From: Halanaerobiales bacterium
GTDB taxonomy: Bacteria > Bacillota > Halanaerobiia > Halanaerobiales > Halanaerobiaceae
NCBI GenBank assembly: GCA_016278485.1
Contig: JADQBT010000002.1
Location: forward strand, 386,570-418,569
Direction: 5' to 3'
DNA length: 32,000 nt
Shown here: one piece after another, positions 1,571 to 23,545 of the stretch
How the letters are laid out: each line of letters opens with the position of its first letter
How positions within the stretch are numbered: position 1 is the first letter of the stretch
The notes under the pieces: model-generated
Databases searched by the model: none
Seen by the model: only the letters and a program-made list of their open reading frames with translations
What the model was told of the DNA's origin: nothing
Translations under genes and position numbers: made by a program

Positions 1571-2928
1571 CAGCCTCGTTCCTCTCTTATCGAAATCAAC
1601 ATAGCAGCCCCTGTTCCAAGGATAATCCAAAAAAGAGGTGCAACAGACACGACACTAATATTAAATACCGCCTGGCTTAGATAACCAGTTAAAGAAAATA
1701 AGATTGCTACCTGATAGCACTCTGTTTTACTAAACTTAATTAGCGGGAAAATTATTACTCCAATTAATAACAGATATAATACTAAGCCCGGAAGACCAGC
1801 TGTAATTCCTAACTGAAGGTATTCTGAATGAACTTTATCTAAAATTGTGTTTTTATTACCAGTAAAGTTCTGGTAAATTTCTTGAGGATAAACTTCTGCA
1901 AATGTATCAAGCCCTGTCCCAGTTAGGGGTTTTTTGAAAAGCAAGGGAAGACTAGTCTGATAAATAAAGATGCGATAACTACCAACCTTAGCTACTTCCC
2001 CACTTCTTTGCTGACTTAGCTTCTGGAAATCATGCAAGATACTAAAAAATCTATTTCCCGTATAACCTGAATTATAAAAATTCATTCCCAGAGTGATAAT
2101 AATAAAAATTAGGATCATTAAAAATATTTTTTTGTAATCCAATTTATTTTTTATTTTTAAATAAATTAAAGCCAAAAAAGCAGTTAATATTAAACCTAGC
2201 CAGACTCCTCTGGTTGAAGTAGCCAACGTAAAGGCGAAAAAAATAGCAGATAAGCAATATAAAATGATTGTGTTTTTCTTTTCTTTGCTCAAAAGGTAGA
2301 AAACAACTGCAGGTGGTAATATCAGTGCTGTAAAACTACCTGCAAAATTTGGGTTACCAAAAGTTGCAAAACTTCTTCTGACCCAATTTACTCTTACTGG
2401 GTCCCTTGCAATAAAATCAATTCCAAAAAACTGTAACAAACCATAAATTGAAACTAAACTACCAGTTAGAAAGAAGACCTTAAATATTAGCTTTATCTCT
2501 GCTTTATTTCTAATTAAATTAGCTGTTATAAAAAATAAAAGCAGATAGATTGAAAATGTTATAAATCCTTCCCACCGAAAAGGCCGGCCATATAAAGCTA
2601 TAAATTTATATTCAGAAAAAAGAGTAGAAATAATTAACTGAAAAAATAAAAATAAAGCAATTATATTAATTTTATTTTTTTTGAATAATTGTCCATTCTT
2701 TTTAACTAAAAAATATGTAACTATTAAAATACTAACTGCAATAAGATAAAGAAATCTTACTCTAGGCAAATAAATATTATCATTTCTCAGTAGTTTATAT
2801 TCCGAAAAATCAGTCTGTACCAACTCCATGCTCCCCGGGTATGGGAGATATAATAATGGAATAACAAAAATAGTAACTAAGATTAGAATAAAAATTAATT
2901 TATGTAATTTGTTTTCCGTTATTAACAT
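1570..2928 (-). CDS. polytopic membrane protein of the O-antigen ligase / Wzy_C family (WaaL or pilin O-oligosaccharyltransferase TfpO/PglL-like)
   Basis: The protein has about 10-12 hydrophobic segments. Wzy_C-like motifs include TSTRGVWLGL, NPNFAGSF and VHSEYLQLGITAGLPGL. The preferred start is the ATG at 2928 (MLITENK...), preceded by GAGGG plus 7 nt. The ORF-track start at 2952 would overlap aroC. Confidence 0.7.
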   Translation of the reverse strand: MLITENKLHKLIFILILVTIFVIPLLYLPYPGSMELVQTDFSEYKLLRNDNIYLPRVRFLYLIAVSILIVTYFLVKKNGQLFKKNKINIIALFLFFQLIISTLFSEYKFIALYGRPFRWEGFITFSIYLLLFFITANLIRNKAEIKLIFKVFFLTGSLVSIYGLLQFFGIDFIARDPVRVNWVRRSFATFGNPNFAGSFTALILPPAVVFYLLSKEKKNTIILYCLSAIFFAFTLATSTRGVWLGLILTAFLALIYLKIKNKLDYKKIFLMILIFIIITLGMNFYNSGYTGNRFFSILHDFQKLSQQRSGEVAKVGSYRIFIYQTSLPLLFKKPLTGTGLDTFAEVYPQEIYQNFTGNKNTILDKVHSEYLQLGITAGLPGLVLYLLLIGVIIFPLIKFSKTECYQVAILFSLTGYLSQAVFNISVVSVAPLFWIILGTGAAMLISIREERG

Positions 2929-2938
2929 TAGAAAACCC

Positions 2939-4117
2939 TCATTTAAGGCCACGACTTATTTTGTAAGAGTTAAAGGAATTTAAAATATCCTCTAAATTAT
3001 CCCCACCAAATTTTTCAATAATAGCATCTGCCAAAATATAAGCAACTAATGCTTCAGCTACAACACCTGCTGCAGGTAAAGCGGTTACATCTGATCTCTC
3101 TATTTGAGCAGTAACTTTCTTTTTGGTTTTCATATCCACCGTCTCTAATGGTTGATAAAGTGTAGGAATTGGCTTCATTGCAATTTTTATGACTAGCGCA
3201 GAACCATTTGTTATTCCTCCCTCTAGACCACCAGCTCGATTCGTATTGCGATAATAGCCTTTCTTTTTATTATAATATAATTCATCGTGAAATTCACTAC
3301 CAGAAAACTCGATATCAGCAAAGGTATTAGCAAATTCAACACCTTTTACAGCGGGAATACTCATTAAAGCACTTGTCAATCTACTATCAAGTCGCTTATC
3401 CCAACTAGTATAACTACCGAGTCCTGGTGGTAACGGGGTTGTCCTTATTTCACAGATACCTCCTAGTGTATCATGACTTTCTCTTGTTTGATCTATGTAG
3501 TTGATCATTTTTTCTTCTTTTTCTTTATCAAAACAATGAAATGGTGATTCAGCAACCTCTGCTTTAAATTTTTGCCAATTTTCTATTGCAATATCTTTAC
3601 TATCAAAATTAACTTTCATCTCTCCAAGCTGAATAACATGACTAATAATATCGATCTTCAAATTACGCAAAAAAGACATTATTATTGCTCCAGCTGCTGT
3701 TCTAATGGCGGTTTCTCTGGCACTAGCCCTTTCCAGAACATTTCTAATATCAGAAAAATTATATTTTATACTTCCAGCAAAATCCGCATGACCAGGCCGA
3801 GGTTGACTTATCTTATTATCCACTTTTATATCCCAGACCGACATAATCTCCTGCCAGTTAGCCCAATCTTTATTTTTAATTAAGAGTCCAATTGGTGAAC
3901 CAATAGTTAGGCCATTTCTAATTCCAGAAATTATTTTCAAGTCATCTGATTCTATCTGCATCCGACCGCCTCTACCATATGCGTTTTTTCTACGCCTTAG
4001 CATATAATTAATAATATTTTTATCTATTTTAATTCCTGCAGGTAAACCTTCCAAAATTGCCATAATTGAATGACCATGTGATTCACCAGCAGTTCTTAAA
4101 CTAAGCAAAATTATCAC
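2939..4117 (-). CDS. aroC: chorismate synthase
   Basis: LRTAGESHG at the N-terminus, RPGHADF, SARETA and GGISNG-like GGITNG are all chorismate synthase hallmarks. The start codon is GTG at 4117, or more likely TTG at 4108 (MLSLRTAGESHG), which lies 10 nt after GGAG. Confidence 0.95.
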   Translation of the reverse strand: MIILLSLRTAGESHGHSIMAILEGLPAGIKIDKNIINYMLRRRKNAYGRGGRMQIESDDLKIISGIRNGLTIGSPIGLLIKNKDWANWQEIMSVWDIKVDNKISQPRPGHADFAGSIKYNFSDIRNVLERASARETAIRTAAGAIIMSFLRNLKIDIISHVIQLGEMKVNFDSKDIAIENWQKFKAEVAESPFHCFDKEKEEKMINYIDQTRESHDTLGGICEIRTTPLPPGLGSYTSWDKRLDSRLTSALMSIPAVKGVEFANTFADIEFSGSEFHDELYYNKKKGYYRNTNRAGGLEGGITNGSALVIKIAMKPIPTLYQPLETVDMKTKKKVTAQIERSDVTALPAAGVVAEALVAYILADAIIEKFGGDNLEDILNSFNSYKISRGLK

Positions 4118-4122: not shown

Positions 4123-4154
4123 AAAAAAAATCTAGAGAATTCTATCTCTAGATT
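4123..4154 (-). terminator. intrinsic-terminator-like hairpin after the cluster B secretin, abutting the aroC RBS
   Basis: The minus strand reads AATCTAGAG-ATAGAATT-CTCTAGATT followed by TTTTTT, then GGAG. The stem is a perfect 9 bp (4129-4137 pairing with 4146-4154), is AT-rich, and is followed by a T-run. Confidence 0.5.
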
Positions 4155-4191: not shown

Positions 4192-5511
4192 TTAATGCTT
4201 CAGTATTTTTAATAATTCTTCTTCTGTAAGACTAATAAAGTCAACTCTCTTATTATTCTTGATTATTTCTGCATCTTTTACTCTTTTTGATGGTTTTATA
4301 ACTTGTTTTTCTCTTTTTTCATAATCATTATTATCATTATGGTTATTATCGTTTTCAATTATATGGGGTGTTAAAAATATAATTATTTCACTTGTTATTT
4401 CACTTACTTCTTCACTTGAAAATAGTCTTCCCAAGAGGGGGATTTGACTCAAAATTGGTACATTTGCATAACTTTTTAATATATCTTTTTTTATTAACCC
4501 ACCAATAGCAAGCGTTTCTCCATTTTTTAACCTGACTGTAGTTTCAATATTTCTTGAATTAATAGCAGGTAACCCATCACTAAACTTTTGACCAAGACTA
4601 CTTACAGAGGGTTTTACTTCTAAAATTATTTGATCATTTGCAACAATATTGGGTAAAAACTCTAATACAATGCCTGCATCTATATATTTTATTGTCGAAA
4701 CTGTTTTTCCATCTTCAATTGTCTCTAATTTAACAGGTACTTGATCACCAATTAGCAATTTTGCTTTTTTACCATCAAGGGTCATAAGACTAGGGTTTGC
4801 CAATAATTCCGCTGCCCCTTGTTCTTCTAAAGATCGTAAAAGATCTGGCCAGGTAAGTTGAATTTTGTCTAATTGACCTGAATCATTTTTAATAAAATTC
4901 AAGGTTGAAAGTTGCTCAGTATGGATACCTAATTTTTTTAATTCTGTCCTGGATACTTCCTCAACACGTGCCTCTACCATTACCTGTTTTCTTGGTAAAT
5001 CTAATTTTTTAACGGTCTTTTTAAGACTATTTATTAAATTATTATCACCAGAGACTATTAAATTTTGTTGGTCGAAAGATATTTTTAAGTCTGGATAGAA
5101 TTCTTTTAATTGATTTAATATTTCCTCTGGTTTGCGATAAGCTAATTGAATAATTCTTTGCGAGTTATTTTGAAAGAGACTCTTCATTCTTTCTTCCGTT
5201 GCTACAAAAATTGTATTCTTTTCCAGTCGATACTGTAAATGATAACCGGTAGTTATTAATTTCAGTGCTTCTTCAAATGTTAAATCCTTTAAAAAAAGTG
5301 TTACCACACCCGTCACAGACTTATCAATAACAATATTATATTCTGCTAACTGAGCTAGCATCAATAATGAATCTTGCAAATCTGCTTGGTCTAAATTAAT
5401 GCTAATTGTTTTTTCTAAACTCCCACCAGCAAAAATATTACTTTCTCCCATAAGTATTAACAAAAACAACAAAATTACTACTATTATTTTACTATTTATT
5501 TTGTTTTTCAT
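4192..5511 (-). CDS. outer-membrane secretin (PilQ/GspD family), cluster B
   Basis: There is a Sec signal peptide (...ESNIFA/GGS). An N0/STN-like domain follows (ISINLDQADLQDSLLMLAQLAEYNIVID...). The C-terminal secretin domain includes ANPSLMTLDGKKAKLLIGDQVPV, TTVRLKNGETLAIGGL, VPILSQIPLLGRLF and IIIFLTPHII. Confidence 0.85.
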   Translation of the reverse strand: MKNKINSKIIVVILLFLLILMGESNIFAGGSLEKTISINLDQADLQDSLLMLAQLAEYNIVIDKSVTGVVTLFLKDLTFEEALKLITTGYHLQYRLEKNTIFVATEERMKSLFQNNSQRIIQLAYRKPEEILNQLKEFYPDLKISFDQQNLIVSGDNNLINSLKKTVKKLDLPRKQVMVEARVEEVSRTELKKLGIHTEQLSTLNFIKNDSGQLDKIQLTWPDLLRSLEEQGAAELLANPSLMTLDGKKAKLLIGDQVPVKLETIEDGKTVSTIKYIDAGIVLEFLPNIVANDQIILEVKPSVSSLGQKFSDGLPAINSRNIETTVRLKNGETLAIGGLIKKDILKSYANVPILSQIPLLGRLFSSEEVSEITSEIIIFLTPHIIENDNNHNDNNDYEKREKQVIKPSKRVKDAEIIKNNKRVDFISLTEEELLKILKH

Positions 5512-6118
5512 ACCATTTCTCCTTAATATTTAAGTGGCCTTCAATCTCCTTATATTTAAATTTTATATAATTTTTATCTATCTCTATTAACTTATATTCT
5601 GCTATTTCATCGCCAACTTTTAAATAATAATCCTTACTTTGATAAGATAATAAAACAAGAAAATTATTATCTGATCCAATAATACCTTTTAAGATAAATG
5701 GAATTTTTATCTTTAATTGCTTATTTTTTATAACTTTTTCAACTGCTAATATTTCAACTTTTTCTATTGGTTCTTTTTCTTTAATTTCTCTTGAGCTTGT
5801 CTCTTTTTTTTGACTACTAATAGCAAACTTTTCACTAACTTCTTCTTTTTGAGTAAAAAAAGGATCTTGTAAGTCTTGATAACTATAAAGCAATCTACCA
5901 CTCGCAAAGTTATTAATATCTTTAATTTCCTTTTCTGTACTTTCCTTTTCTCTATTTTCTATTATTATATTTTGTTTATTAGGCTTAGATTTAAGGACGC
6001 TTTGCTGACTAAGCTCATTTGCTTTACTAACTTGTTGTTTTTGGTCATTTAGATAGTAAATTATCAACATTAAAATAATAAGACAAATTAAAATTAGAAT
6101 AATATATTGTCTTTTCAT
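5492..6118 (-). CDS. PilP-like pilus assembly protein (membrane-anchored), cluster B
   Basis: It has an N-terminal TM segment, a K/E-rich linker and a C-terminal beta-domain (ILKGIIGSDNNFLVLLSYQSKDYYLKVGDEIAEYKLIEIDKNYIKF) resembling PilP. The gene sits directly upstream of the secretin, and its start overlaps the upstream stop as TAATG. Confidence 0.45.
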   Translation of the reverse strand: MKRQYIILILICLIILMLIIYYLNDQKQQVSKANELSQQSVLKSKPNKQNIIIENREKESTEKEIKDINNFASGRLLYSYQDLQDPFFTQKEEVSEKFAISSQKKETSSREIKEKEPIEKVEILAVEKVIKNKQLKIKIPFILKGIIGSDNNFLVLLSYQSKDYYLKVGDEIAEYKLIEIDKNYIKFKYKEIEGHLNIKEKWYEKQNK

Positions 6119-6585
6119 TAATAATCTCTCCAGATTATATTTATTAAAGTTATATTTGCTCTCAAATTATGACTGAGCTTAGTAATCTTTAAACGCTCAA
6201 TCTTATAGGTTAATTTACTTTGTTGTAATAGGGCAAAAAACTTAATTAAAGAAAAATAATTTCCTTCCAATAAAATATTTACTTTATTGTCAATTAAATT
6301 TGGATAATAACCTGACATTATTAATGTTGTATTTTCTAAACAACTCTTTATCTCTTTTAAAAGTTCATGATCATTATAATTTTTTTTTATTATTGGAGAA
6401 GGAACAGTTGCTTTATTATTTTTAACTAAATTTTTAATTTTATTTTGGATTTGTTGATTCTCTATTTTAATCGATTCTAAATGGTGATAATCTCTAATCC
6501 AATAACGGATATTGATTAAAATCACAAATAGCAAAAAAATAATTAACGTTATTTTAATTCGCTTATTCAGCATGATAATCACCAA
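6118..6585 (-). CDS. PilO-like pilus assembly protein, cluster B
   Basis: It has a single N-terminal TM segment followed by a coiled-coil (QQIQNKIKNLVKNNK) and then an alpha/beta region. It lies between the PilN-like and PilP-like genes. The real start may be the ATG at 6573 (MLNKRIK). Confidence 0.5.
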   Translation of the reverse strand: MVIIMLNKRIKITLIIFLLFVILINIRYWIRDYHHLESIKIENQQIQNKIKNLVKNNKATVPSPIIKKNYNDHELLKEIKSCLENTTLIMSGYYPNLIDNKVNILLEGNYFSLIKFFALLQQSKLTYKIERLKITKLSHNLRANITLINIIWRDY

Positions 6586-7063
6586 TTTTTAGAGGAATAA
6601 CTAATATTACGAATTGTAATTTATCTTGTCCCTTCATTTCCAATAATTGAACATCTTCTAAATAAGGCGATAGGCCCAGTTTTTCTAAATATTTAATAAC
6701 TTCGTCTGACTGTTTTGCTCTCCCCGAAATTTGGATAGTTCCTTTAGTTAGTAGAATAGAATTTAATTCTATTCGATTAGTGATAGCAAGTGCCAATTCT
6801 TCCAAAATTAAATCCAATGAATAGTTCTTATTATCAACAGTTTTTTTATCAGGTCCATTTTGCTTTAATTTTATGTTTTCTAAACTTAATAATTTATTAT
6901 CTAGATTACTTTTTAAATTTAGTTCTGTTTTAACTCTTTTTTGATATATTTGTGACAGAGCAAAAATCAATAAAAAAATTAGCAAGAGTATGATTAAAAT
7001 TAGCGTTAAATTTAACTTATTTTTCTTCAACTCGTCTTTTTTATAATTTAGATTAATTAACAT
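6563..7063 (-). CDS. PilN-like pilus assembly protein, cluster B
   Basis: The N-terminal MLINLN resembles the conserved PilN INLLP PilM-binding motif. A single TM segment and a coiled-coil follow. The gene lies immediately after PilM and overlaps it. Confidence 0.55.
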   Translation of the reverse strand: MLINLNYKKDELKKNKLNLTLILIILLLIFLLIFALSQIYQKRVKTELNLKSNLDNKLLSLENIKLKQNGPDKKTVDNKNYSLDLILEELALAITNRIELNSILLTKGTIQISGRAKQSDEVIKYLEKLGLSPYLEDVQLLEMKGQDKLQFVILVIPLKIGDYHAE

Positions 7064-8010
7064 GCTCTAACTCCACCCAATGCTCCACCTAAAGCCGTTG
7101 CAAAGCAGGATGGTATTTTATAATCTTCAGCAAATAATTTTACATTCATTGCTAAATTTCCTATTAATAACTGACGAAAACTTTTTAAATCTACTCCTCC
7201 TCCGGTAATTAAAACTGTTTCAGTTCTAAAATCACAATATCTTTTTAAATAAATATTTGTTTCATCTATTTCTCTAATTAAATTATTTACTGCAAATTGC
7301 AGATACTTGCTTGCATTGTTTTTTTGATAATAATTATCTTTTTCTTTTAATTTTTTTGCATCTTGATAGAGTAACTGCAATTCATGCATAATTATCTCTG
7401 TAAAATAGTAGCTATTAAAATCAACTTCTCTAACTAAATTGATACAGTCATTATTAAGATGGATAATTTTAGTTCCCTGGCATCCTAAATCAACTATCAT
7501 TAGCTCGTCCAATTTGGGATAATAATATCTTGCTAAATTGAATAATGCCAGTGGTTCTGCTGTGATAATAATATTTTTTTGTTCTCTTGTACTAAATAAG
7601 CCAATCAATTGGTCGATAGTATTTTTGGGAGATGCAAAAAGATAGCTAATGCCGGTTTTATTATGCTTAGGTTCCCAGAGATCATAAATATATTTAATAG
7701 GATTACCTAAATTAGCAAGAACATTTTCTATCTCTTGCTCAGATTTAACTTCCGTACTTGGTAAAACCTTGAAAATTACATCATTTACAGGTAAGGAGAT
7801 TATAATATTATATTTTAATAATTTTTCTTTCCGTAAAATATTGATTATATCTTGTAATTCATGATATGCAATCTTTTTTGAATAAACTTTATTATATTCA
7901 TAAACTTTAGTCTGTTTGATATTTATCTGGTCTAATTTCTTTATATATTTTAAGTTAATTACTTTAACCGCAGAACTTCCAAAATCTAGTGATGTTAACT
8001 TTTTAACCAC
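7057..8010 (-). CDS. pilM: PilM-like actin-fold pilus assembly ATPase, cluster B
   Basis: Actin-like phosphate and adenosine motifs are present: LTSLDFGSSAVKVINL, VDLGCQGTKIIHL and LITGGGVDLKSF. The start is GTG at 8010, preceded by AAGGAG plus 8 nt. Confidence 0.75.
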   Translation of the reverse strand: MVKKLTSLDFGSSAVKVINLKYIKKLDQINIKQTKVYEYNKVYSKKIAYHELQDIINILRKEKLLKYNIIISLPVNDVIFKVLPSTEVKSEQEIENVLANLGNPIKYIYDLWEPKHNKTGISYLFASPKNTIDQLIGLFSTREQKNIIITAEPLALFNLARYYYPKLDELMIVDLGCQGTKIIHLNNDCINLVREVDFNSYYFTEIIMHELQLLYQDAKKLKEKDNYYQKNNASKYLQFAVNNLIREIDETNIYLKRYCDFRTETVLITGGGVDLKSFRQLLIGNLAMNVKLFAEDYKIPSCFATALGGALGGVRAC

Positions 8011-8015
8011 TATTT

Positions 8016-8402
8016 TTACTCCTTTCGTACAATTTCAACCTCTTGCATGACAAAATCATTCTTAGTTAGTTTTGCTCTGATTTCTACAATCGTATCATCT
8101 GCTTTTCCAGAAACTTCAAGATAATAAAAAAATAATTCTTCAGTAATGACAAGTTCAGCTGATTGTTGATTATTTAATGTTATAGTTTTTTCATTACTAA
8201 TATTCTCTTCGGAATTTACTAATAGATATTTAGCAACAATTATACCTGATCTTGCCGCCATTTTTGCCAGCTTATAATTTCTTGTTTTATTGCTTAATTG
8301 TAAATTTATATAAGATCCATGTACCAATAATGAACTAATCAAGCCTAAGGTTACAATTAGTAGCAAAATTGAAATTAATATATAACCATGATTGTTTAAT
8401 AT
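8016..8402 (-). CDS. PilX/ComGG/GspK-like minor pilin-associated protein, cluster B (start codon uncertain)
   Basis: The ORF-track start (TTG at 8366) leaves only about 14 hydrophobic residues. In frame upstream the sequence reads N-I-L-N-N-H-G-Y-I-L-I-S-I, giving NNHGYILISILLLIVTLGLISSLLV, which parallels the cluster A PilX_N protein (NENGSALLLIMVIIVVLTVIG). AKMAARSGI resembles the PilX_N AEAG motif. AAGGAG lies 8 nt before ATA at 8402, and no ATG, GTG or TTG is available upstream. Confidence 0.5.
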   Translation of the reverse strand: MLNNHGYILISILLLIVTLGLISSLLVHGSYINLQLSNKTRNYKLAKMAARSGIIVAKYLLVNSEENISNEKTITLNNQQSAELVITEELFFYYLEVSGKADDTIVEIRAKLTKNDFVMQEVEIVRKE

Positions 8403-8405
8403 GTT

Positions 8406-8942
8406 TTATTCTCCTTTCCCTAATGGATTTGCAGAAATTATTAGCTGATTATTCAACAAATCGTCCGTTATTTTAATTCGCAAGTAGATTAATTCTTCAT
8501 TCGTTGATAGCCAACCAAATTCTAGTTTATTAATCTTTTCTATTAAAGCAGTTGGTCTTTTATAAATGATTAAACCATTTTCTTCATGACCAATAGATCT
8601 TCCTAATTTTCTTAAACCACCTGAATAATATTCTTCAAAAGATATCCACTGCCATTCATCTTTATAGATAGTATAAAGATTAATCCTACTTTCACTTAAA
8701 AGTTCAATCTCTTTTGCCATTTCAATTTTTTCTACTATATAATCAGCGACCAATTGGCTATCTTGCATCACACCTACCCGATAATCTACCTTTTCTAAAC
8801 TGTCATTAAATAGTAAAATTGTTTTTAAAATTAGCATGCTTACTACTGCAAGCAATAAAATAGCTATTAAATTTTCTAATAAGGTAAAACCCTGACAGTT
8901 TTTGAAATATATTTTACATGGCTTCTGCTTCATTAATTTCAT
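8406..8942 (-). CDS. minor (pseudo)pilin with prepilin-type N-terminus (PilW/GspJ position), cluster B
   Basis: It has a class III signal peptide, ...NCQG/FTLLENLIAILLLAVV, with G at -1 and E at +5. Confidence 0.8.
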   Translation of the reverse strand: MKLMKQKPCKIYFKNCQGFTLLENLIAILLLAVVSMLILKTILLFNDSLEKVDYRVGVMQDSQLVADYIVEKIEMAKEIELLSESRINLYTIYKDEWQWISFEEYYSGGLRKLGRSIGHEENGLIIYKRPTALIEKINKLEFGWLSTNEELIYLRIKITDDLLNNQLIISANPLGKGE

Positions 8943-9366
8943 TCCACTCAGCTAAAATTGTAGATATTACAAAATCATTACTAATGTTTTTACTACTATA
9001 ATTCACATTGATATTGACCTGATATAATCCGGGATAAATAGTCTCATTCTCTGCATAAGGTTTAACTTCTACTACAGTTGCCTCAATCTGCTTATTTAAA
9101 AATATTTCTTCTAATTCTGCCAATAAAATAATTATTTCAGACTGGCTTTTACCCACAAGTTTAGCTAATTCAACCTGTTCAGTATTCAAATAATTGACTA
9201 CTGACTCTCCCCAATTTGCTGCTTGATTACTATCTTCAATAAATGCTCTTACATCAAGAGCTGTGCTAATTGTTCTACTAAAACTAACCAGTACTACACC
9301 AGCCAGGGATATAGAAATTACTATCTCAAGTAATGTAAAACCACTTTTATTATTTAGATTTTTCAA
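8914..9366 (-). CDS. minor (pseudo)pilin with prepilin-type N-terminus (PilV/GspI position), cluster B
   Basis: The N-terminus MKNLNNKSG/FTLLEIVISISLAGVVLV is a class III signal peptide. Confidence 0.8.
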   Translation of the reverse strand: MKNLNNKSGFTLLEIVISISLAGVVLVSFSRTISTALDVRAFIEDSNQAANWGESVVNYLNTEQVELAKLVGKSQSEIIILLAELEEIFLNKQIEATVVEVKPYAENETIYPGLYQVNINVNYSSKNISNDFVISTILAEWNEINEAEAM

Positions 9367-9859
9367 TATTAATCCTCCCCATCTGATTAATTGTCACCTG
9401 AAAAATTCTTTCACCATCTCCCAAGCCAATCGTACCACTTAAGGCTGTGCCATAACCTGTAAAGCGAATTCTATCATAATAAGGATCAGCAACTAACACC
9501 GGACTAGAGTTTTTGTATAAAAGCAAGCTATCAGGATAACTTCCTTCTCTAATAACTTGCATTAGATTATCCTGGTCAAGATAATAAATTATATAGTCTG
9601 CTTTATAATCTTCATCTGTTTTATAAATATCATCTACTGAATAAACCCTTAGCCGATAAGTTTTATTATCAGCAATGGCTTTTGCTCTGGTCCAACGTAA
9701 ATCATTGCTAAGTATACCTATTGCTTCATTTAGTTCTGCTCTTGCTAGTTGCGACTGGCTAAAAATTATGGGAGCAGAGACAACTGAAAAAAGGACTAAA
9801 ACCATTAATAGTTCTATCAGTGTCAAACCTTTCTGATTGCTTAGATAGCTAATTATCAA
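9350..9859 (-). CDS. minor (pseudo)pilin, FimT/GspH-like, cluster B
   Basis: The N-terminus is ...SNQKG/LTLIELLMVLVLFSVV. LSNDLRWTRAKAIADNKTYRLRV resembles the GspH/FimT domain core. Confidence 0.75.
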   Translation of the reverse strand: MIISYLSNQKGLTLIELLMVLVLFSVVSAPIIFSQSQLARAELNEAIGILSNDLRWTRAKAIADNKTYRLRVYSVDDIYKTDEDYKADYIIYYLDQDNLMQVIREGSYPDSLLLYKNSSPVLVADPYYDRIRFTGYGTALSGTIGLGDGERIFQVTINQMGRINIEKSK

Positions 9860-10257
9860 GGTGTTGGAGTTGTAGTACTAGGACCAGCTACCATCCCATC
9901 TGAACTATTAACATAATAGTATTCATTGTCTGATGTTAAATAATAAGCTAAATATGATTTTTCATTATTACCAGATTGATAATTATAATCAGAACTTGGA
10001 TTTGACAAAGATAGGTCTAGATCAGTTAAAGTACCAATCTCAACTGCAGTAGTAGCTGTTGGGTAAGATTTTTGATCCATATAGTACATTTCTAAACCAT
10101 ACATAATATTATGCAGATCACTTTTTACTACAGTCAGGTCAGCTTTCTTTTTTACACCACTAAAACCAGGGACAGCAATACCGATTAATATCCCCAAAAT
10201 TACAATTACAATCATCAATTCAATTAATGTAAAGCCTTTTTCATTAATATTTTTCAT
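9856..10257 (-). CDS. major type IV pilin / pseudopilin, cluster B
   Basis: The N-terminus is MKNINEKG/FTLIELMIVIVILGILIGIAVP. It is the first pilin gene after the platform gene and has a strong RBS (AAAGGAGAG). It contains no cysteine and ends with the S/T/P tail GPSTTTPTP. Confidence 0.85.
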   Translation of the reverse strand: MKNINEKGFTLIELMIVIVILGILIGIAVPGFSGVKKKADLTVVKSDLHNIMYGLEMYYMDQKSYPTATTAVEIGTLTDLDLSLSNPSSDYNYQSGNNEKSYLAYYLTSDNEYYYVNSSDGMVAGPSTTTPTP

Positions 10258-10271
10258 TTTTTCTCTCCTTT

Positions 10272-11312
10272 TTAGCCAATTACAGTATATAACTGAAAAA
10301 TAGGCAATACCACAGTAACTGCAAGTAAACCAACTATAGCAGCCATAAAAACTATTAAAGCTGGCTCTAATAATGTCAACAATTTTTTAGTACCCTTTTC
10401 TAGTTTCTGTTGATAAAGTAGTGCTGCTTTATTCAGCATTAATGATAAACGACCTGTCTCCTCTCCCGTAATTATTAACTGATAGTAGATTTTAGGAATT
10501 AATTTATTTCCATTTAAGCTACTACTGAGACGACCTCCTTTCCTAATTATTAATTCAGTTTCTTCCATTATTTTCTGATATGAATTGTTATTAATAACTC
10601 CATTTGATATTTTAAGAGTAGTGATTAAATCCAAACCACTTTCCAGTAACATACTCATTGTTCCAGCAAGATTACTCAATATCGAATACTGATATAACTT
10701 ACCAATGATAGGAAAATATAATAAATAATTTTTTATAAATTTGACAGCTTTTTCTGTACTAAGTAAATAAAATATAGCCAAGATAAAGAGAAATAAAAAC
10801 ATAAGTAAATAAAATATATTTTCCTTAATAAATTCTCCAGAATTCAAAAGAATCATTGTAAGTAATGGTAAATCTTTTGAAAAATCTGAAAATATGCGTG
10901 AAAATGTAGGTAAAACTTGCCAGATGAAAAATATACCTGCTAAAAAGGTTACTATTAAGACAATTACTGGATAGTATAATAATTGTTTTATTTCAGCTTT
11001 TAGTTTATTTTCTCTTAAATAATGTTGATTAATTTCAGAAAAAGCTTCTGCTAATTTACCAGTTTGTTCTCCAACCTTTACCATAGCAATAAATAAATCT
11101 GGAAAGTGTTGATTATGTTTTTTTAATGCTTCTGTCAAAGAAAATCCTGCTTCAATATCATTACTAACTTCATTAATGATATTGCTAATTAACTGATCAT
11201 CACTCTGAGATATTAATAAAGTAAGAGCAAGTTGTATCGGTAAGTCTGCATCTATTAATAAATATAATTGTTCTGCTATATAAAGCTTGTCCACTTTTTT
11301 CAATATCAACAC
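10272..11312 (-). CDS. GspF/PilC-family platform protein, short ComGB-sized form (346 aa), cluster B
   Basis: Two T2SSF-type repeats are present (LIDADLPIQLALTLL... and LLESGLDLITTLKIS...), along with 3 TM segments. The GTG start at 11312 directly follows the ATPase TAG stop, so the frame cannot be extended upstream. It lacks the roughly 60-aa N-terminal segment seen in the cluster A PilC. Confidence 0.85.
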   Translation of the reverse strand: MLILKKVDKLYIAEQLYLLIDADLPIQLALTLLISQSDDQLISNIINEVSNDIEAGFSLTEALKKHNQHFPDLFIAMVKVGEQTGKLAEAFSEINQHYLRENKLKAEIKQLLYYPVIVLIVTFLAGIFFIWQVLPTFSRIFSDFSKDLPLLTMILLNSGEFIKENIFYLLMFLFLFILAIFYLLSTEKAVKFIKNYLLYFPIIGKLYQYSILSNLAGTMSMLLESGLDLITTLKISNGVINNNSYQKIMEETELIIRKGGRLSSSLNGNKLIPKIYYQLIITGEETGRLSLMLNKAALLYQQKLEKGTKKLLTLLEPALIVFMAAIVGLLAVTVVLPIFQLYTVIG

Positions 11313-12983
11313 CTATCCTGTAACTCTTAATACTTCTTCAAGAGTTGTTATTCCAGAAACAACCTTATCAAGTCCATCTTCCTTTAAAGTTATCATTCCT
11401 TTTGAAATAGCATAAGCTTCCATAGCCGCTTCACTCTGACCTTGCATAATTAATTCTCGCAAATGGTCGTCTAACATCAGTACTTCATGAATTGGTACTC
11501 TTCCTTTATAACCCTGATCAGCGCATACAGAACAGCCTCTTCCTTTTTTTAGCTCAATTCCTTCACTAATTAAATTATCCAGTTTTCTAATGCCTGTTCT
11601 GACAGGATAATATGATTTCCTACACTCAGGACAGATCTTTCTAACAAGCCGTTGAGCTACTACACCTGATAAGGATGAAGCTACTAAATAAGGCGGTATA
11701 TTCATTTCAAGCAAACGAGTAATACTACTTACCGCATTGATAGTATGTAAAGTGCTAAAGACTAAATGACCTGTAATAGCAGCCCTAATAGCTATCTTAG
11801 CCGTTTCTTCGTCCCTAATCTCTCCTAACATGATTATATCTGGATCCTGTCTTAAAATAGCTCTTAAGGAAGTTAGAAAGTTAATTCCTGTTTTTTCCTC
11901 TGTCTCAATCTGGGTAATTCCTTTAAGTTTATATTCTACTGGGTCTTCAATTGTAGTAATATTTGTAGCTGGATCGTTAAGTCTGTCCAAGGCTGAAAAT
12001 AAAGTTGTTGTTTTCCCACTACCTGTAGGACCAGTTAATAGAATTATACCGGAACTGTGATTAAGTATCTTTTTAAAATTGTTAAGATTAACTGAGGTAA
12101 AACCTATTTTTTCAAGATTTAATAATTGACCTTTTTTAGGTAAGATTCTCATCACAGCTTTTTCTCCATAGATAGTCGGAATGACAGCTACTCGCAAGTC
12201 GCATAATTGGCCATTAATATTTTTTTCTAATCTCCCATCCTGTGGTTGTCTTCTTTCAGTGATATCCATGCCAGCTATAATTTTTATTCTAGAAATAATA
12301 GCTGGAGCGATACCTTTTGGAAATGAAAGTTTTTCTATTAAGATACCATCAACCCGATATCTAACTCTAATCTTATCTGGTTGTGGTTCAATATGAACAT
12401 CACTAGCGTCTAACTCAATTGCCTGTTCTATAATTAAGTTTACTAACTTTACTACTGGTGCATCATCAACAATTGCATTTAAATTATTTTTTTTAATCTT
12501 TTCTTCTTTTAATAAATCTTCAACCTCACCAATCAATACCTTTTGATCTTTTTGATACTGATCTCCATATATTTCTTTTTTAATTTTATTATATAATTTT
12601 TCACTAATTAACTTTATTTTTAATCTATATCCTGTGCTTGATTTTATTTCTTCTCTAATAGCCAAGTTTAATGGTTCCTGCATTGCTAATGTCAATACTT
12701 TATTTTTTAATTTGACTGGAAGCAATTTATACTTGACTGCCAGATTATAGTTAACTTTTTGTCCCAAATTTTGTTCTAATTTGAAATCTTTTTCCTGACA
12801 GAGTGGAATCTTATATTGTTCACTTAAAGCAGAAAAAAGTTGTTCTTCTGTGATTATACCTTCACTAATTAATAGTTTTCCTATTCTTTCACCTGGCACT
12901 TCCCTCTGTTTTGCCAAATAATTATTTAAATTTATACTATCAATAAAACCTTTTTTTATTAAAATTTGCCCAATTTTTAACAT
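11313..12983 (-). CDS. type IV pilus / T2SS assembly ATPase (PilB/GspE family), cluster B
   Basis: The N-terminus is a T2SSE_N/MshEN domain. Walker A is GPTGSGKTTTLFSAL, the Asp box/Walker B is DPDIIMLGEIRD and the His box is STLHTIN. There is a tetracysteine motif, CPECRK...CSVCADQGYKGR. The RBS is GGAGGTGG. Confidence 0.9.
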   Translation of the reverse strand: MLKIGQILIKKGFIDSINLNNYLAKQREVPGERIGKLLISEGIITEEQLFSALSEQYKIPLCQEKDFKLEQNLGQKVNYNLAVKYKLLPVKLKNKVLTLAMQEPLNLAIREEIKSSTGYRLKIKLISEKLYNKIKKEIYGDQYQKDQKVLIGEVEDLLKEEKIKKNNLNAIVDDAPVVKLVNLIIEQAIELDASDVHIEPQPDKIRVRYRVDGILIEKLSFPKGIAPAIISRIKIIAGMDITERRQPQDGRLEKNINGQLCDLRVAVIPTIYGEKAVMRILPKKGQLLNLEKIGFTSVNLNNFKKILNHSSGIILLTGPTGSGKTTTLFSALDRLNDPATNITTIEDPVEYKLKGITQIETEEKTGINFLTSLRAILRQDPDIIMLGEIRDEETAKIAIRAAITGHLVFSTLHTINAVSSITRLLEMNIPPYLVASSLSGVVAQRLVRKICPECRKSYYPVRTGIRKLDNLISEGIELKKGRGCSVCADQGYKGRVPIHEVLMLDDHLRELIMQGQSEAAMEAYAISKGMITLKEDGLDKVVSGITTLEEVLRVTG

Positions 12984-13027: not shown

Positions 13028-13057
13028 ATTCTACACCTAATTGGAAATTCCTGCTAA
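13028..13057 (-). promoter_or_regulatory. candidate sigma-A-type promoter for cluster B
   Basis: On the minus strand, TTAGCA (13057-13052) is followed by an 18-nt spacer and TAGAAT (13033-13028). It lies in the 100-nt gap between the cluster A terminator and the cluster B ATPase start. The match is weak and the background is AT-rich. Confidence 0.25.
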
Positions 13058-13083: not shown

Positions 13084-13121
13084 CAAAAAAATGCTTTTAC
13101 CCCTCTCTGAGGTAAAAGCAT
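13084..13121 (-). terminator. rho-independent terminator ending cluster A
   Basis: The minus strand reads ATGCTTTTACC-TCAGAGAGG-GGTAAAAGCAT followed by TTTTTTG. The stem is a perfect 11 bp (13091-13101 pairing with 13111-13121) and is followed by a T-run. Confidence 0.75.
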
Positions 13122-13143
13122 CAAAAAATAACTTGTCATATTT

Positions 13144-13337: not shown

Positions 13338-15101
13338 TTAATTACTAATAATCTTTTTTAATTCTTCTATTGTTAATTCTTGATATTCTTTTGCCTGATT
13401 TTTTTCTTTCTTTTCATTTTTAACATTAGCTTCTTCTTTAATTTTTTCCTCATCTATCTTTTCAATATTTACTTTATTTTCCCTAATATTTTTTGGTGTT
13501 TTATGTTCTATTACATCAGAGAAATCATTAACTATGTGAGGCGTTATAAAGATAATTATTTCGGTCTTACGCTCTACTTTAGAACGAGATTTAAATAATT
13601 CGCCAAGTAAAGGTATTTGAGAAAAGAATGGGATCTCTCTTAAATCTTTTGCTAGATCATCTTGAATCAGACCACCTATTGCAAAAGTTTGCCCATCTTT
13701 TAATGTAACTAATGTTTCGAGTTCTCGCGTTTTTATGCGAGGTGGTTTACCGGGTTCGTTAAAGTTTTCATCTATATTACTAACTTCTGGATTTACACTT
13801 AAAGTTATTAAATCATCACTTGATATTTTGGGATTAAACTTAAGAATAATCCCCACTTCCCGATATTCATAAGTTACTGTTGTTTCACCATCTGGACCCT
13901 GTGATTGGATTGGAATTGGTATTTCGTCACCAATTAAAATCCTGGCATCCTCTTCTTCAACAGTCATTAAACTAGGATTAGCTAATGTTTGGGCATTTCC
14001 AGAGTTTTGCAAAAGTTTCAAAGCATCTGGCCAATTAGGATTAAATAACTTACCACTTTCTAAGTTCATCGGAACTAGAGAAAAAGAAGATAGTTCATCT
14101 GGATCAATACCCACATTTCTTGTTTTATCTACTGCTATCTCTTCTATTCTTACATCGATCATAACCTGTCGTTTGGGATTATCCAAAATGCTAATCAGAC
14201 GATCAGCCTGGTCAAGTTGCGGTTCTCTCCCAGCAATAATTAGTCTTTTAAGATTAGATTCGACTTGAATGTTCAATTCAGGTAATAGGCCACTAATAAC
14301 CTTTTGGACAGATTCTAAATCCGTATAATCAATCTGCCACTGTCTAGTAGCTAGATACTGGCTTTCATCAAACTTCTCAGCCAATTTTATTGCTTGAGCA
14401 ACATCTAAACTGTCTCCCGCTATAGTCAGTAAAGAAGTTTCTTCTCCTGAAGTTTTAATTACAATCTCAGGATAAAATTGATTTAAATAATTTTTTAATT
14501 TTAAAGTATCTGCATATTTAGCTTTATAAATTTTAGTAGTTTGAGGAGCTTGAGGTGCTATTGGTTCAGGTTCAACAATTGGTTGTGGTATATCTATTTT
14601 TTCTAAAAAACTAAATGCCTTTTCTAAGGTTTCATCTGCTCCCATCAATATAAGTTGACCTGTTTCTGGCATAAGATCAATTTTTAACTCAGGAAAAAAA
14701 CTAGTTAGTTTTGATTTTGCTAATTCTGCTGCAACATGTTTTAAATTTAAAATCTTGATACTTTCTTCACTATATATCTGCTCTAATTTTTCAGGTGGTG
14801 CGATTACAATAGTATTCCCGTCCCAGCGATAATTTAAATTATTTGCTTTAGTTATTAATGAGATGGATTTTTCAAAAGATAGATTATTTAATTTTAAAGT
14901 TGTTTTTCCTTGTACAGAAGCATCCACAATTAAATTCACATCAGCTACTTCTGCAATTGCCCTTAAAACATCACTGATAGCTGTATCACTAAAAGATAAG
15001 TTTATTTTAACATCATTATTTGTAACAGCTAAAACCTGTAACTGACTACCTAAAATAATAATAACTAATATTAGTGAAATACATAAGATTTTATCTTTCA
15101 T
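13338..15101 (-). CDS. pilQ: outer-membrane secretin (PilQ family), cluster A
   Basis: There is a signal peptide (...LQVLA/VTNN). An N0/STN-like domain follows (INLSFSDTAISDVLRAIAEVADVNLIVD...), then repeated N-domains. The secretin domain includes ANPSLMTVEEEDARILIGDEIPI, TLVTLKDGQTFAIGGL, IPFFSQIPLLGELF and IIIFITPHIV. Confidence 0.9.
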   Translation of the reverse strand: MKDKILCISLILVIIILGSQLQVLAVTNNDVKINLSFSDTAISDVLRAIAEVADVNLIVDASVQGKTTLKLNNLSFEKSISLITKANNLNYRWDGNTIVIAPPEKLEQIYSEESIKILNLKHVAAELAKSKLTSFFPELKIDLMPETGQLILMGADETLEKAFSFLEKIDIPQPIVEPEPIAPQAPQTTKIYKAKYADTLKLKNYLNQFYPEIVIKTSGEETSLLTIAGDSLDVAQAIKLAEKFDESQYLATRQWQIDYTDLESVQKVISGLLPELNIQVESNLKRLIIAGREPQLDQADRLISILDNPKRQVMIDVRIEEIAVDKTRNVGIDPDELSSFSLVPMNLESGKLFNPNWPDALKLLQNSGNAQTLANPSLMTVEEEDARILIGDEIPIPIQSQGPDGETTVTYEYREVGIILKFNPKISSDDLITLSVNPEVSNIDENFNEPGKPPRIKTRELETLVTLKDGQTFAIGGLIQDDLAKDLREIPFFSQIPLLGELFKSRSKVERKTEIIIFITPHIVNDFSDVIEHKTPKNIRENKVNIEKIDEEKIKEEANVKNEKKEKNQAKEYQELTIEELKKIISN

Positions 15102-15543
15102 TATTATCTAACCCCATCTCAAAATTAACTAAATAATTATCTTTTTTCATAACAATTTGATTAGCTTTAATCTCAATCAACTGATAACCATTTAATTTTT
15201 GATTTAGCTGCAAAAACTCTAATCTACCTTCATTTTCAATAACTGCAATTTTATCCTGATCCGAAGTAACAATTCCTTTTAAGAGAAAAGATGGGTTAAA
15301 TGAATTTAAGACCAACTCTGCCTGTTCGTTATTATTTTCAGCCGTTGTTTTAGCTTCACTAATTGCTTCATCTGTCAGACTACCTTCATTTTCTTGATAA
15401 CGAAAATCTAGGAATGGATTTCGCTCTTTTTCTTCTGAAACTAACTCTGTTTCTGCCTGAACCAAACTGACCATGGCAAATATTATCAGGTTTATAAGTA
15501 AAAAATATAATACAATATTATGTTTTCTTATTAAACTAAACAT
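15091..15543 (-). CDS. PilP-like pilus assembly protein, cluster A
   Basis: It has an N-terminal signal/anchor, an acidic linker and a C-terminal LLKGIVTSDQDKIAVIENEGRLEFLQLNQKLNGYQLIEIKANQIVM, which parallels the cluster B protein and PilP. It sits directly upstream of the secretin. Confidence 0.5.
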   Translation of the reverse strand: MFSLIRKHNIVLYFLLINLIIFAMVSLVQAETELVSEEKERNPFLDFRYQENEGSLTDEAISEAKTTAENNNEQAELVLNSFNPSFLLKGIVTSDQDKIAVIENEGRLEFLQLNQKLNGYQLIEIKANQIVMKKDNYLVNFEMGLDNNER

Positions 15544-16081
15544 TTAACTCACCTGCTTTGTTTGGTTCTAGTAGACATTTTATATTTACTTCAATTAGTC
15601 CATTATTAGCGTTTATCGGAGTAAAGTTTAATTCATCTAAAACAAATAATTTATCATATCTGGTTAAACTACCTATAAAAAGTACAAGATTTTCAAAATT
15701 ACCTGCTGCTTTAAAAAATACTGCTAGCTTGGGATCACTACCTTCAGGTATATACCTTTCAATATTTATATTCGCCATTTTTGCTCGAGCTGCCAATAGT
15801 TTGAAAAAGTCTTCTTCAGATTTCCAATCAGGCGGATAAAGTGAGAATAATTCCATTTCTAGTTCTTTTATCTTTTTTTCTAATTCTGGAATTTGTCTAA
15901 CCTTTACTAAAAGCGAATTTAATTGAGTATTTTTTTGCGTTAATGAGTTATCTAAATCATCAATTATCTGTTTTTGCGGTAGGTGATAATAGAAATAATA
16001 TAAGCCAATAATTATCATAAAAAGAGCAATTAACAAAAGATACTTTTCTCTATTAGATAATCGATTTAACATATTAATCAT
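15536..16081 (-). CDS. PilO-like pilus assembly protein, cluster A
   Basis: It has a single N-terminal TM segment (YLLLIALFMIIIGLYYFYY), a coiled-coil (LEKKIKELEMELFSL) and an alpha/beta C-terminus. It lies after the PilN-like gene. Confidence 0.55.
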   Translation of the reverse strand: MINMLNRLSNREKYLLLIALFMIIIGLYYFYYHLPQKQIIDDLDNSLTQKNTQLNSLLVKVRQIPELEKKIKELEMELFSLYPPDWKSEEDFFKLLAARAKMANINIERYIPEGSDPKLAVFFKAAGNFENLVLFIGSLTRYDKLFVLDELNFTPINANNGLIEVNIKCLLEPNKAGELNV

Positions 16082-17676: not shown

Positions 17677-17688
17677 CTCATCATTTCT

Positions 17689-18222: not shown

Positions 18223-18227
18223 CTAGA

Positions 18228-19893: not shown

Positions 19894-19921
19894 AGCAGGC
19901 CCTCCTCAAGTGGACCTAAAA

Positions 19922-20647: not shown

Positions 20648-20650
20648 GAT

Positions 20651-21085: not shown

Positions 21086-21149
21086 ACTAAACTCCTCCTC
21101 ATTAATAATAAAAGTAATTAATAGACCTAAATCAACACCAACAGACATA

Positions 21150-21188
21150 ACCTTAAGCATATTATCGAAAAGAGTCAACAAAAGTTAA
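21150..21188 (-). promoter_or_regulatory. candidate internal promoter(s) upstream of the major pilin gene
   Basis: One candidate on the minus strand is TTGACT (21178-21173), a 17-nt spacer and TAAGGT (21155-21150). A second, overlapping candidate is TTAACT (21188-21183), an 18-nt spacer and TAATAT (21164-21159). Both lie in the 146-nt PilC-PilA gap. This rests on hexamer matching only. Confidence 0.25.
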
Positions 21189-23543: not shown

Positions 23544-23545
23544 CT

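Follow-up and report, generated by a model that had tools for sequence, protein, structure and literature searches.

The diderm Firmicutes (Halanaerobiales, Negativicutes) are central to the debate on the gain and loss of the outer membrane, and little is known of what crosses this membrane in them. One conserved type IV pilus (T4P) locus with PilQ has been described in Halanaerobiales and Negativicutes (Antunes et al. 2016), and for diderm Firmicutes Denise et al. counted six type IV filament systems that have a secretin, namely three type IVa pili (T4aP), two Tad systems and one type II secretion system (T2SS), the latter an unspecified entry. The T4P locus of Acetohalobium arabaticum is catalogued in Table S6 of Denise et al. 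2019, and in the diderm Firmicute Veillonella parvula competence was mapped by mutagenesis to a T4aP locus that includes PilT (PMC5397411). Here we studied a stretch of 32,000 nucleotides, hereafter the window, from a Halanaerobiales bacterium (contig JADQBT010000002.1), in which a PilT-containing T4aP locus of the same type, cluster A, is followed by a second filament operon, cluster B. In the literature consulted we found no description of a second conserved PilT-less secretin-bearing operon in Halanaerobiales, and no T2SS-type system for diderm Firmicutes beyond the unspecified entry of Denise et al.

An initial annotation of the window had taken cluster B for a ComG/T2SS-like pseudopilus front half joined to a PilMNOP-secretin back half. 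Our analysis argues for another reading, which we hold to be probable: cluster B would encode a complete second type IVa-like machine, belonging to a 12-gene family confined to the Halanaerobiales that arose from an old duplication of a T4aP cluster. A pair of paralogous secretin machines that share a sigma-H-type promoter would make a clean case of duplication and divergence in the type IV filament superfamily, and since Halanaerobium can be cultivated, the cluster B family offers a candidate for secretion, DNA uptake or attachment that can be put to the test there.

Cluster B is a single operon of twelve genes

Every gene of the window lies on the minus strand. Cluster B forms a single operon of 12 genes (window 12983..4192), and all 12 open reading frames (ORFs) were confirmed at the coordinates given below in the order of transcription, together with the signals that delimit the operon. 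Family calls are Pfam/NCBIfam hidden Markov model (HMM) matches judged against curated cut-offs.

13090..13122, minus strand: intrinsic terminator ending cluster A and forming the upstream boundary of cluster B (14-pair stem and T-run)
13028..13054, minus strand: sigma-H-type promoter of cluster B (GCAGGAATT, 11-nt spacer, GTAGAAT)
11313..12983, minus strand: extension ATPase, 556 amino acids (aa), PilB/GspE family (T2SSE 430 bits, and MshEN)
10272..11312, minus strand: short platform protein, 346 aa, PilC/GspF family, without about 60 N-terminal residues (two T2SSF stretches, 150 bits)
9856..10257, minus strand: major pilin, 133 aa, leader MKNINEKG/FTLIELM, tail GPSTTTPTP (N_methyl 38.6 bits)
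9350..9859, minus strand: minor pilin 1, 169 aa, GspH/FimT/ComGD position (N_methyl; GspH 21.6 bits for a cut-off of 21)
8914..9366, minus strand: minor pilin 2, 150 aa, GspI/PilV/ComGE position (N_methyl)
8406..8942, minus strand: minor pilin 3, 178 aa, GspJ/PilW/ComGF position (N_methyl)
8016..8402, minus strand: fourth tip-position protein, GspK/PilX/ComGG/YgdB position, about 128 aa from ATA 8402 or 116 aa from TTG 8366
7057..8010, minus strand: PilM, 317 aa (PilM_2 43 bits for a cut-off of 27)
6563..7063, minus strand: PilN, 166 aa, N-terminus MLINLN (PilN 37 bits for a cut-off of 22.8)
6118..6585, minus strand: PilO/GspM-like protein, 155 aa, weakly assigned (no Pfam match; position and weak similarity)
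5492..6118, minus strand: PilP/GspC-HR-like protein, 208 aa, with a transmembrane anchor (no Pfam match; BLAST over the C-terminal domain)
4192..5511, minus strand: secretin, 439 aa, tail ending LTEEELLKILKH (Secretin 157 bits, STN (N0) and one Secretin_N)
4129..4154, minus strand: intrinsic terminator closing the operon, between the secretin stop and the aroC start (10-pair stem and T-run)

The genes are tightly packed, neighbours overlapping by 1-29 nt or being separated by gaps of at most 39 nt; as the platform and major pilin genes are 14 nt apart, there is no room for a promoter of the pilin's own. The N_methyl prepilin motif was found by Pfam in four of the proteins. These positions and family matches bear out the gene list of the initial annotation, and the hairpin at 13122..13090 followed by the promoter at 13054..13028 agrees with its view that cluster B has its own promoter after a terminator. 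Its statement that the cluster lacks PilT and PilD also held: no PilT or Peptidase_A24 gene was found within cluster B, the window's sole copies (23543..22470 and 20647..19922) being those of cluster A, 7-10 kb upstream.

22470..23543, minus strand: PilT of cluster A, the window's sole retraction ATPase
19922..20647, minus strand: PilD prepilin peptidase of cluster A (A24_N_bact 123 bits, Peptidase_A24 75 bits), the only such gene in the window

Cluster A itself (25240..13338) encodes PilB, PilT, PilC, a pilin, PilD, a 430-aa PilX_N/DUF7305 protein, two pilin-like proteins, PilM-N-O-P and a 587-aa secretin. The two clusters are 43% identical in the ATPase, 30% in the platform and 36% in the secretin, and similarity of PilM, PilN and PilP was barely detectable. 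With a complete transcription unit of its own and such identities (30-43%), cluster B is as separate from cluster A as the initial annotation had supposed.

Cluster B resembles a Firmicute-type T4aP locus without pilT and pilD

In the Firmicute-type T4aP loci (cluster A, its counterpart in H. congolense, A. arabaticum and V. parvula) the genes follow the order ATPase, platform, pilin, minor pilins, PilM-N-O-P and secretin. Cluster B keeps this order, minus pilT and pilD, and shares with these loci the full-length PilB-type ATPase and the promoter type; in trees it is their sister group. Compared with them, its platform is shorter by about 60 N-terminal residues, its secretin has 439 aa and theirs 587-631, and a compact quartet of small tip proteins stands where they have a PilX_N/DUF7305 protein of 384-430 aa; PilM, PilN, PilO and PilP are highly divergent. 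Of the hallmarks of a T4aP, cluster B has the PilB-type ATPase, a dedicated secretin and the placement in trees, and lacks a PilT and PilD of its own. The joining of a ComG/T2SS front half to a PilMNOP-secretin back half, as proposed in the initial annotation, is not supported: the order is that of cluster A and is conserved as a 12-gene operon in Halanaerobium. Since cluster A, comG and gspE-M all share the order, the resemblance to any one of them is uninformative, which cautions against calling such loci "ComG-like" or "T2SS-like" by gene order alone.

For ComGA, ComGB and MshE, HMM scores were used in place of a tree. The ATPase has an intact Walker A and an intact tetracysteine motif, as well as two intact copies of the MshEN c-di-GMP-binding motif, at residues 3-26 and 33-56, and scored 49.8 on the c-di-GMP motif model NF053729 (cut-off 38), so that gating by c-di-GMP is predicted from these motifs. 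Its best solved relative was full-length Geobacter PilB, to which it aligned along its entire length (459 bits versus 405 for GspE). On the PilB equivalog model TIGR02538 it remained below the cut-off (562 for 676), as did the PilB of cluster A (628).

ComG, the competence machinery of monoderms (ComM), is like cluster B in the order and sizes of the first seven genes, in a platform of ComGB length, in a pilin gene within the operon, in having no PilT and, as regards Listeria comG, in a sigma-H-type promoter. It differs in that cluster B goes on with five further genes, PilM-N-O-P and the secretin, and has an ATPase with a long N-terminus. On the ComGA model the ATPase reached 260 bits, below the cut-off of 300 and no higher than cluster A PilB (267) or ordinary PilBs (242-279), and it has a full-length PilB build with an MshEN N-terminus, unlike ComGA. 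The platform scored 115 on ComGB (cut-off 240), no better than ordinary PilCs.

With the T2SS (E. coli gspC-O) cluster B shares the gspE-M order, a minor pilin of the GspH family and the absence of PilT, and PilM+PilN, PilO and PilP are homologues of GspL, GspM and GspC. GspE and GspF were the top NCBIfam models for its ATPase and platform, but all scores fell short of the cut-offs (576 for 630 on GspE, 260 for 424 on GspF, and 60 for 89 on GspG), and PilB and PilC of cluster A scored equal or higher on the Gsp models. The platform aligns to GspF positions 62-400 and the secretin only to GspD residues 251-598. In contrast to a T2SS, cluster B has no PDZ or coiled-coil GspC, PilM and PilN are separate and not a fused GspL, the secretin is without N2/N3 and is thus no N0-N3 GspD, the ATPase N-terminus is of the MshEN type, the GspK-position protein is small (about 128 aa versus 327 aa for E. 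coli GspK), and E. coli Gsp falls outside the clade of cluster B. The earlier remark that there are no GspC/L/M-type genes is a matter of naming, given the homologies just cited; no T2SSC, T2SSL or T2SSM match was obtained with the window proteins.

Two proteobacterial systems were compared as well. E. coli Ppd/Hof and Pasteurellaceae Pil/Com have, like the cluster B family, a short N0-N1-secretin and a PilMNOPQ-type row next to aroK/aroB, and, like Halanaerobium, a short gene at the PilM position (247 aa in Halanaerobium, 259 aa for HofM). The secretin of cluster B has the length of this type (about 410-445 aa) and can be aligned to E. coli HofQ from one end to the other, but at an identity of 24% only and with scores on the HofQ models (105-125) far below the cut-offs (554-598); moreover, the Hof genes are split over several loci and show no affinity in the trees. 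MSHA of Vibrio is, like cluster B, a second T4a-like pilus with its own secretin, no dedicated PilT and an ATPase with the MshEN c-di-GMP motif. Its gene set and order are different, the score of the secretin on the MshL model was below the cut-off (116 for 250), and the Halanaerobium orthologues of cluster B lack the c-di-GMP motif. On the model TIGR02515 the secretin scored 195 (cut-off 284).

Clusters A and B are probably old paralogues within the Halanaerobiales

Neighbour-joining trees with bootstraps, computed from simple distances, grouped cluster B with its Halanaerobium counterparts. In the secretin tree the window and Halanaerobium B sequences formed a clade at 100%, and the A and B types of Halanaerobiales joined at 87% in a clade that excludes Natroniella, a Negativicute and the HofQ and GspD of E. 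coli. For the platform, the window and Halanaerobium B sequences again grouped at 100%, and at 94% with those of a Halanaerobiaceae metagenome-assembled genome (MAG), L089, nested among Firmicute PilC. With the ATPase alone or concatenated with the platform, and E. coli Gsp as the root, the A type was recovered at 97-100% and the B lineage including L089 at 92-100%; the node uniting A and B had 79% (ATPase) and 72% (ATPase and platform), E. coli Hof and proteobacterial PilB lying outside. A first ATPase tree, rooted on PilT, had been unresolved, the Halanaerobium sequences being drawn to the base; the E. coli GspE root and the addition of H. congolense cluster A resolved it.

On these trees cluster B is an old paralogue of the local T4aP cluster, sister to cluster A inside the Halanaerobiales. 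The ATPase with platform and the secretin group with the Halanaerobiales A type (72-87%) and not with E. coli Gsp/Hof. The initial annotation had called for an ATPase phylogeny with PilB, GspE, ComGA, MshE and TadA references, and had held that a tight grouping with cluster A would indicate a recent duplication without subfunctionalisation. In a tree with E. coli Gsp, E. coli Hof and proteobacterial PilB as references, the ATPase does fall with the Halanaerobiales A type; and ATPase and platform are indeed sister to those of cluster A, yet the duplication is not recent: since both types have orthologues in Halanaerobium, it must be old and was followed by strong divergence.

The same 12 genes were found in the same order in four contigs by exact protein look-up, and in metagenomes, where nine contigs with flanks were obtained and the operon is contained in full in six of them. 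The orthologous operons, all intact, come from H. congolense-like and H. saccharolyticum-like contigs, a Bacillota MAG and at least six metagenome contigs. Every alignable cluster B protein is closer to its Halanaerobium orthologue than to cluster A. The secretin has many such orthologues (420-460 aa, 45-52% identical), and the major pilin is 48-49% identical to the pilins of the Halanaerobium operons. The platform orthologues (326-346 aa, 34-37% identical) were found only via the secretin search; a search with the platform itself gave nothing above 35% identity outside the window's own sequence, its best matches lying in unrelated PilB-PilC(-PilSR) loci. Minor pilin 2, a marker specific to the B type, belongs to a narrow family, since a search of 1.84 billion proteins gave no more than 12 representatives at E <= 1e-3, and the window proteins are all singletons when clustered at 90% identity.

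In Halanaerobium the locus reads leuB-leuA, the 12 genes, Wzy_C (in some contigs), an aroK-aroB fusion, aroQ, pepP and efp. The A type of H. congolense (contig L095), with PilT, PilD and a 631-aa secretin, is a separate locus; its upstream flank is as in the window (U32 peptidase, DUF4911, SleB-like, Fur, Crp, aroE). Both machines are therefore conserved in the family, in tandem in the window and at separate loci in Halanaerobium. MAG L089 has a single cluster, without PilT and PilD, between aroE and aroC, and its pilD follows efp. Halobacteroidaceae (Acetohalobium, Natroniella) have one locus, which contains PilT and whose secretins are short or duplicated; in Acetohalobium, a PilQ of 428 aa is part of a full locus of this kind. 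A horizontal import of cluster B was considered and rejected: flanks and orthologues are those of Halanaerobiales, and the GC content is near that of the surroundings (the AT-rich cluster B is slightly below).

Two details of these relatives may be recorded here. The ATPase of the L089 cluster (2428-3912, 494 aa) has no MshEN N-terminus, and a free-standing 83-aa MshEN fragment (16997-17248), 49% identical to residues 31-112 of cluster A PilB, lies beside pilD after efp; the c-di-GMP-binding module of L089 may have become detached, or may survive as a remnant. In Natroniella sp. (L090) the PilT-containing locus ends with tandem secretins, one of 531 aa with a SPOR domain (10001-11596) and one of 406 aa (11835-13055), which the tree gives as sister paralogues (98% bootstrap) and hence as an independent duplication in Halobacteroidaceae.

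Both clusters carry a sigma-H-type promoter

The sigma-H consensus is (A/G)(A/C)AGG(A/G)WWW-N11-12-(A/G)(A/G)(A/C)GAA(A/T), and the Listeria innocua comGA promoter is among those listed (PMC4754846). The promoter of cluster B deviates from this consensus solely at the second position of the -10 element; the -10 sequence itself, GTAGAAT, also occurs unchanged in the L. innocua comGA promoter. A second motif of this type precedes cluster A:

25281-25306, minus strand: sigma-H-type motif of cluster A (GCAGGAAAA-N11-GTCGAAA), just upstream of pilB in the 70-nt gap after aroE

The pattern GCAGGAWWW-N11-NNNGAA occurs twice in the 32 kb, for 0.06 occurrences expected, both times on the coding strand and directly upstream of the first gene of A and of B. 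Four B operons of Halanaerobium and cluster A of H. congolense are preceded by the identical motif with the same 11-nt spacer, which stands amid AT-rich spacers that are otherwise unalignable. Clusters A and B thus appear to be co-regulated, apparently by one alternative sigma factor, and we infer from the motif that cluster B depends on sigma-H. Scans of the window with Rfam and for tRNAs gave no matches, and specifically no c-di-GMP riboswitch.

Tip proteins, alignment proteins and secretin

The three minor pilins and the protein that follows them have further, weak affinities. Minor pilin 1 matched ComGD at E = 3e-8, which is below the cut-off, and is 31-37% identical to its Halanaerobium orthologues. 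For minor pilin 2 (43-45% identical) the orthologues match GspI, ComGE and PilV below cut-off. Minor pilin 3 (25-31% identical) has weak ComGF and ComGE matches, its orthologues also GspJ. The fourth tip protein has no Pfam match and reached GspK at E = 0.016, below cut-off; among its orthologues, that of L089 matched ComGG (7.5e-5) and PilX_N (3.6e-4), and DUF2509 was matched at 0.009, none at cut-off. Although none of them reaches a cut-off, these matches are consistent with a quartet of the GspH-I-J-K, ComGD-E-F-G or FimU-PilV-W-X type.

The fourth tip protein had been described as having no class III cleavage motif. The in-frame codons 5' of its TTG start, however, read NILNNHG/YILIS, a degenerate signal without Glu at +5 that aligns with five orthologues; the Gly and the hydrophobic N-terminus are invariant in all six sequences. 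Class III signals without Glu at +5 are known for GspK and PilX. The 116-aa ORF is thus probably longer than called. At the position where the orthologues carry ATG the window has ATA, and an independent assembly has the same bases. The gene is in frame with that of minor pilin 3, from which a single TAA separates it (window 8366-8408, minus strand).

For the PilO-like protein, hhalign gave a probability of 76% against the Halanaerobium position-10 proteins and of 39% against A-type PilO, and the Halanaerobium orthologue matched T2SSM at E = 0.0034. For the PilP-like protein, BLAST gave E values of 6e-5 with the PilP of cluster A and of 1.5e-6 with that of L089. At the PilM position, Halanaerobium has a 247-aa gene product without detectable similarity to the window PilM. 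We tried it as a PilM homologue, but hhalign against the PilM alignment gave a probability of 12%, which leaves homology unproven. Within the Halanaerobium B operons (L100, L102, L103, L105 and L112 compared with L086), PilN, PilO and PilP are 35-52% identical and the other proteins compared 57-88%; going by these identities, sequence change is much faster in the periplasmic alignment proteins than elsewhere in the machine.

A charged C-terminal extension of 50-60 aa is common to the secretins of A and B (window 13338-13500 and 4192-4350, minus strand) and of the Halanaerobium B operons (P0128, P0135, P0188, P0193). It ends in a conserved helix-like LTxEELxxIL(K/N), is absent from Natroniella, Negativicute and E. 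coli secretins, and might serve as an S-domain-like docking element peculiar to this lineage.

A working model for cluster B

The following course of events would account for these data. An old duplication of a Firmicute-type T4aP cluster would have been followed by the loss of pilT and pilD, the shortening of platform and secretin, and fast divergence. Cluster B would be transcribed as a single unit from the sigma-H-like promoter to its own terminator. Its five prepilin-like products would be cut in trans by PilD of cluster A; such a dependence is plausible, since without a pilD in cluster B the peptidase must be encoded elsewhere, and the related cluster of L089 likewise has pilD outside the operon. 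The hexameric PilB-type ATPase, presumably gated by c-di-GMP, would drive the PilC-type platform, the four tip-position proteins would prime a filament built of the 133-aa pilin, and PilM, PilN and the PilO-like and PilP-like proteins would connect the motor to the dedicated 439-aa secretin. Retraction, if any, would rely on PilT of cluster A in trans or be independent of a motor.

As to its role, the features of cluster B fit the three known kinds of type IV filament without PilT, namely MSHA-like attachment pili, competence pili and T2SS pseudopili. By analogy with MSHA we tentatively favour a pilus for stationary-phase attachment or biofilm formation promoted by c-di-GMP; we rank it ahead of DNA uptake, and DNA uptake ahead of secretion, while holding even this foremost role to be somewhat short of an even chance.

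Several points weigh against this picture of a complete, c-di-GMP-responsive type IVa machine. Support for the node uniting A and B is 72-87%, in trees without ComGA/ComGB (ComM), MshE/MSH, type IVb pilus or further T2SS references. The identities of PilO and PilP come from position and weak similarity. Given its ATA, the fourth tip protein may be poorly made or shortened, and single-sequence AlphaFold2 models of it and of the PilO-like protein (mean confidence, pLDDT, of 52 and 56) were confident for the N-terminal helices only. Finally, ATPase orthologues in Halanaerobium no longer have the c-di-GMP motifs, so that control by c-di-GMP is no trait of the family.

A DNA-uptake pseudopilus, in which a short PilT-less filament inside a small secretin of its own pulls DNA across the outer membrane as in Haemophilus Pil/Com and E. 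coli Ppd/Hof, is unlikely in our judgement, although a number of features speak for it: the promoter fits the sigma-H consensus and has the -10 element of a Listeria comGA promoter, sigma-H being the factor behind comG and comE expression in Listeria and Staphylococcus; the secretin is built like HofQ; PilT is lacking and the gene of the pilin lies within the operon; and the linkage of secretin, aroK and aroB in Halanaerobium recalls E. coli hofMNOPQ-aroK-aroB. The promoter, however, is shared with cluster A and singles out neither, and the V. parvula competence locus, the only one of a diderm Firmicute defined by mutagenesis, is of the PilT-containing A type; these two facts together weaken a role of cluster B in DNA uptake and in secretion alike, and with it the division of labour supposed in the initial annotation, in which cluster A would serve motility and adhesion. 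In addition, the ATPase and platform show no ComGA/ComGB affinity, HofQ is far from cluster B in the secretin tree, no comEA or comEC lies nearby, and short secretins also occur within full PilT-containing Halanaerobiales loci, as in Acetohalobium. Still less probable, to our mind, is a T2SS-like machine that evolved independently from a T4aP duplicate and in which a pseudopilus piston pushes folded exoproteins through the secretin. The order of genes, which is that of gspE-F-G-H-I-J-K-L-M with the equivalents of C and D last, the lack of PilT, the GspH-family minor pilin, the pilin gene inside the operon, the top rank of the GspE and GspF models and the one T2SS with a secretin that Denise et al. 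count among diderm Firmicutes would all suit it. Against it stand the sub-threshold Gsp scores, which cluster A equals or exceeds, one N-domain repeat in the secretin rather than N1-N3, unfused PilM and PilN, the small fourth tip protein, an ATPase N-terminus of the MshEN type, the lack of a PDZ or coiled-coil GspC, and trees that nest cluster B within Firmicute T4aP, apart from E. coli Gsp. That the B lineage is an independent Firmicute invention of a pseudopilus-type machine from a duplicated T4aP, with no PilT, a pilin gene within the operon and a small secretin of its own, be it for exoprotein secretion or for DNA uptake, is unlikely; if true, it would parallel the origin of the proteobacterial T2SS from T4aP and give a route across the diderm Firmicute outer membrane.

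Least probable is a redundant or decaying duplicate without a separate function. Fast evolution, AT-richness, PilM/N/O/P that are barely recognizable, an ATA at the start position of the fourth tip gene and the loss of the c-di-GMP motif in Halanaerobium ATPases could be read as signs of decay, but all 12 frames are intact here and in at least 10 independent Halanaerobium-type contigs with the order kept, the promoter motif has been conserved, the ATPase retains its catalytic motifs unimpaired, and the duplication is older than the split of the window lineage from Halanaerobium. We thus retain a second type IVa-like machine as the reading of cluster B.

Neighbouring genes and other observations

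Upstream of cluster A the genes are, in the order of transcription, a methyltransferase, a U32 peptidase, DUF4911, SigK, HAD, SleB-like, Fur, Crp and aroE. The window PilT is 64-75% identical to those of Halothermothrix, Halanaerobium, Natronospora and Halanaerobiales MAGs, and this affinity, together with the presence of the SigK and SleB-like genes, points to a spore-forming member of the Halanaerobiales as the source of the DNA. Downstream of cluster B the terminator is followed by aroC, a Wzy_C protein and aroK.

1570..2952, minus strand: Wzy_C (O-antigen-ligase-like) protein, 460 aa (Wzy_C 70.6 bits), between aroC and aroK

An orthologue of this protein, 44% identical, follows the B operon in four contigs (L094, 11441-12832; L100, L102 and L103), so that the protein is a candidate pilin O-glycosylase linked to the 3' end of this operon. 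In cluster A of H. congolense, a further Wzy_C gene (608 aa; L095 12400-14226) stands just before that of the pilin. The pilin tails are rich in Ser, Thr and Pro in both window pilins and in Halanaerobium pilins (GPSTTTPTP, PSGISTTP, GPESTAPSL). Taken together, these features suggest that the pilin C-terminus undergoes TfpO-like O-glycosylation (cf. PMC9829042).

Between clusters A and B, an ORF encoding a hydrophilic protein of 46 aa (MDEEKTKKDF...NVNFNA; window 13144-13284, minus strand) with a strong ribosome binding site, GGAGGTG, lies between the stop of the cluster A secretin and the strong terminator. Its annotation as a gene recurs in an independent assembly (L001), and it has no match in Pfam/NCBIfam. 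Within cluster A, the gene of the 430-aa PilX_N/DUF7305 protein, which is beta-solenoid-like (18601-19893, minus strand), overlaps a long 5' extension of the next pilin-like ORF (18228-18725, minus strand), whose real start is probably near residue 36, directly before KEKG/FTLIE.

A scan of genome contigs with the cluster B ATPase gave, among the matches listed, PilBs of about 45% identity from mixed phyla. In some unrelated genomes (L007, L008, L035, L073, L076, L081; e.g. Bacillus alkalicola) the match spans 2.2-2.5 kb instead of about 1.67 kb, which suggests insertions of 200-270 aa in the ATPase gene, perhaps inteins.

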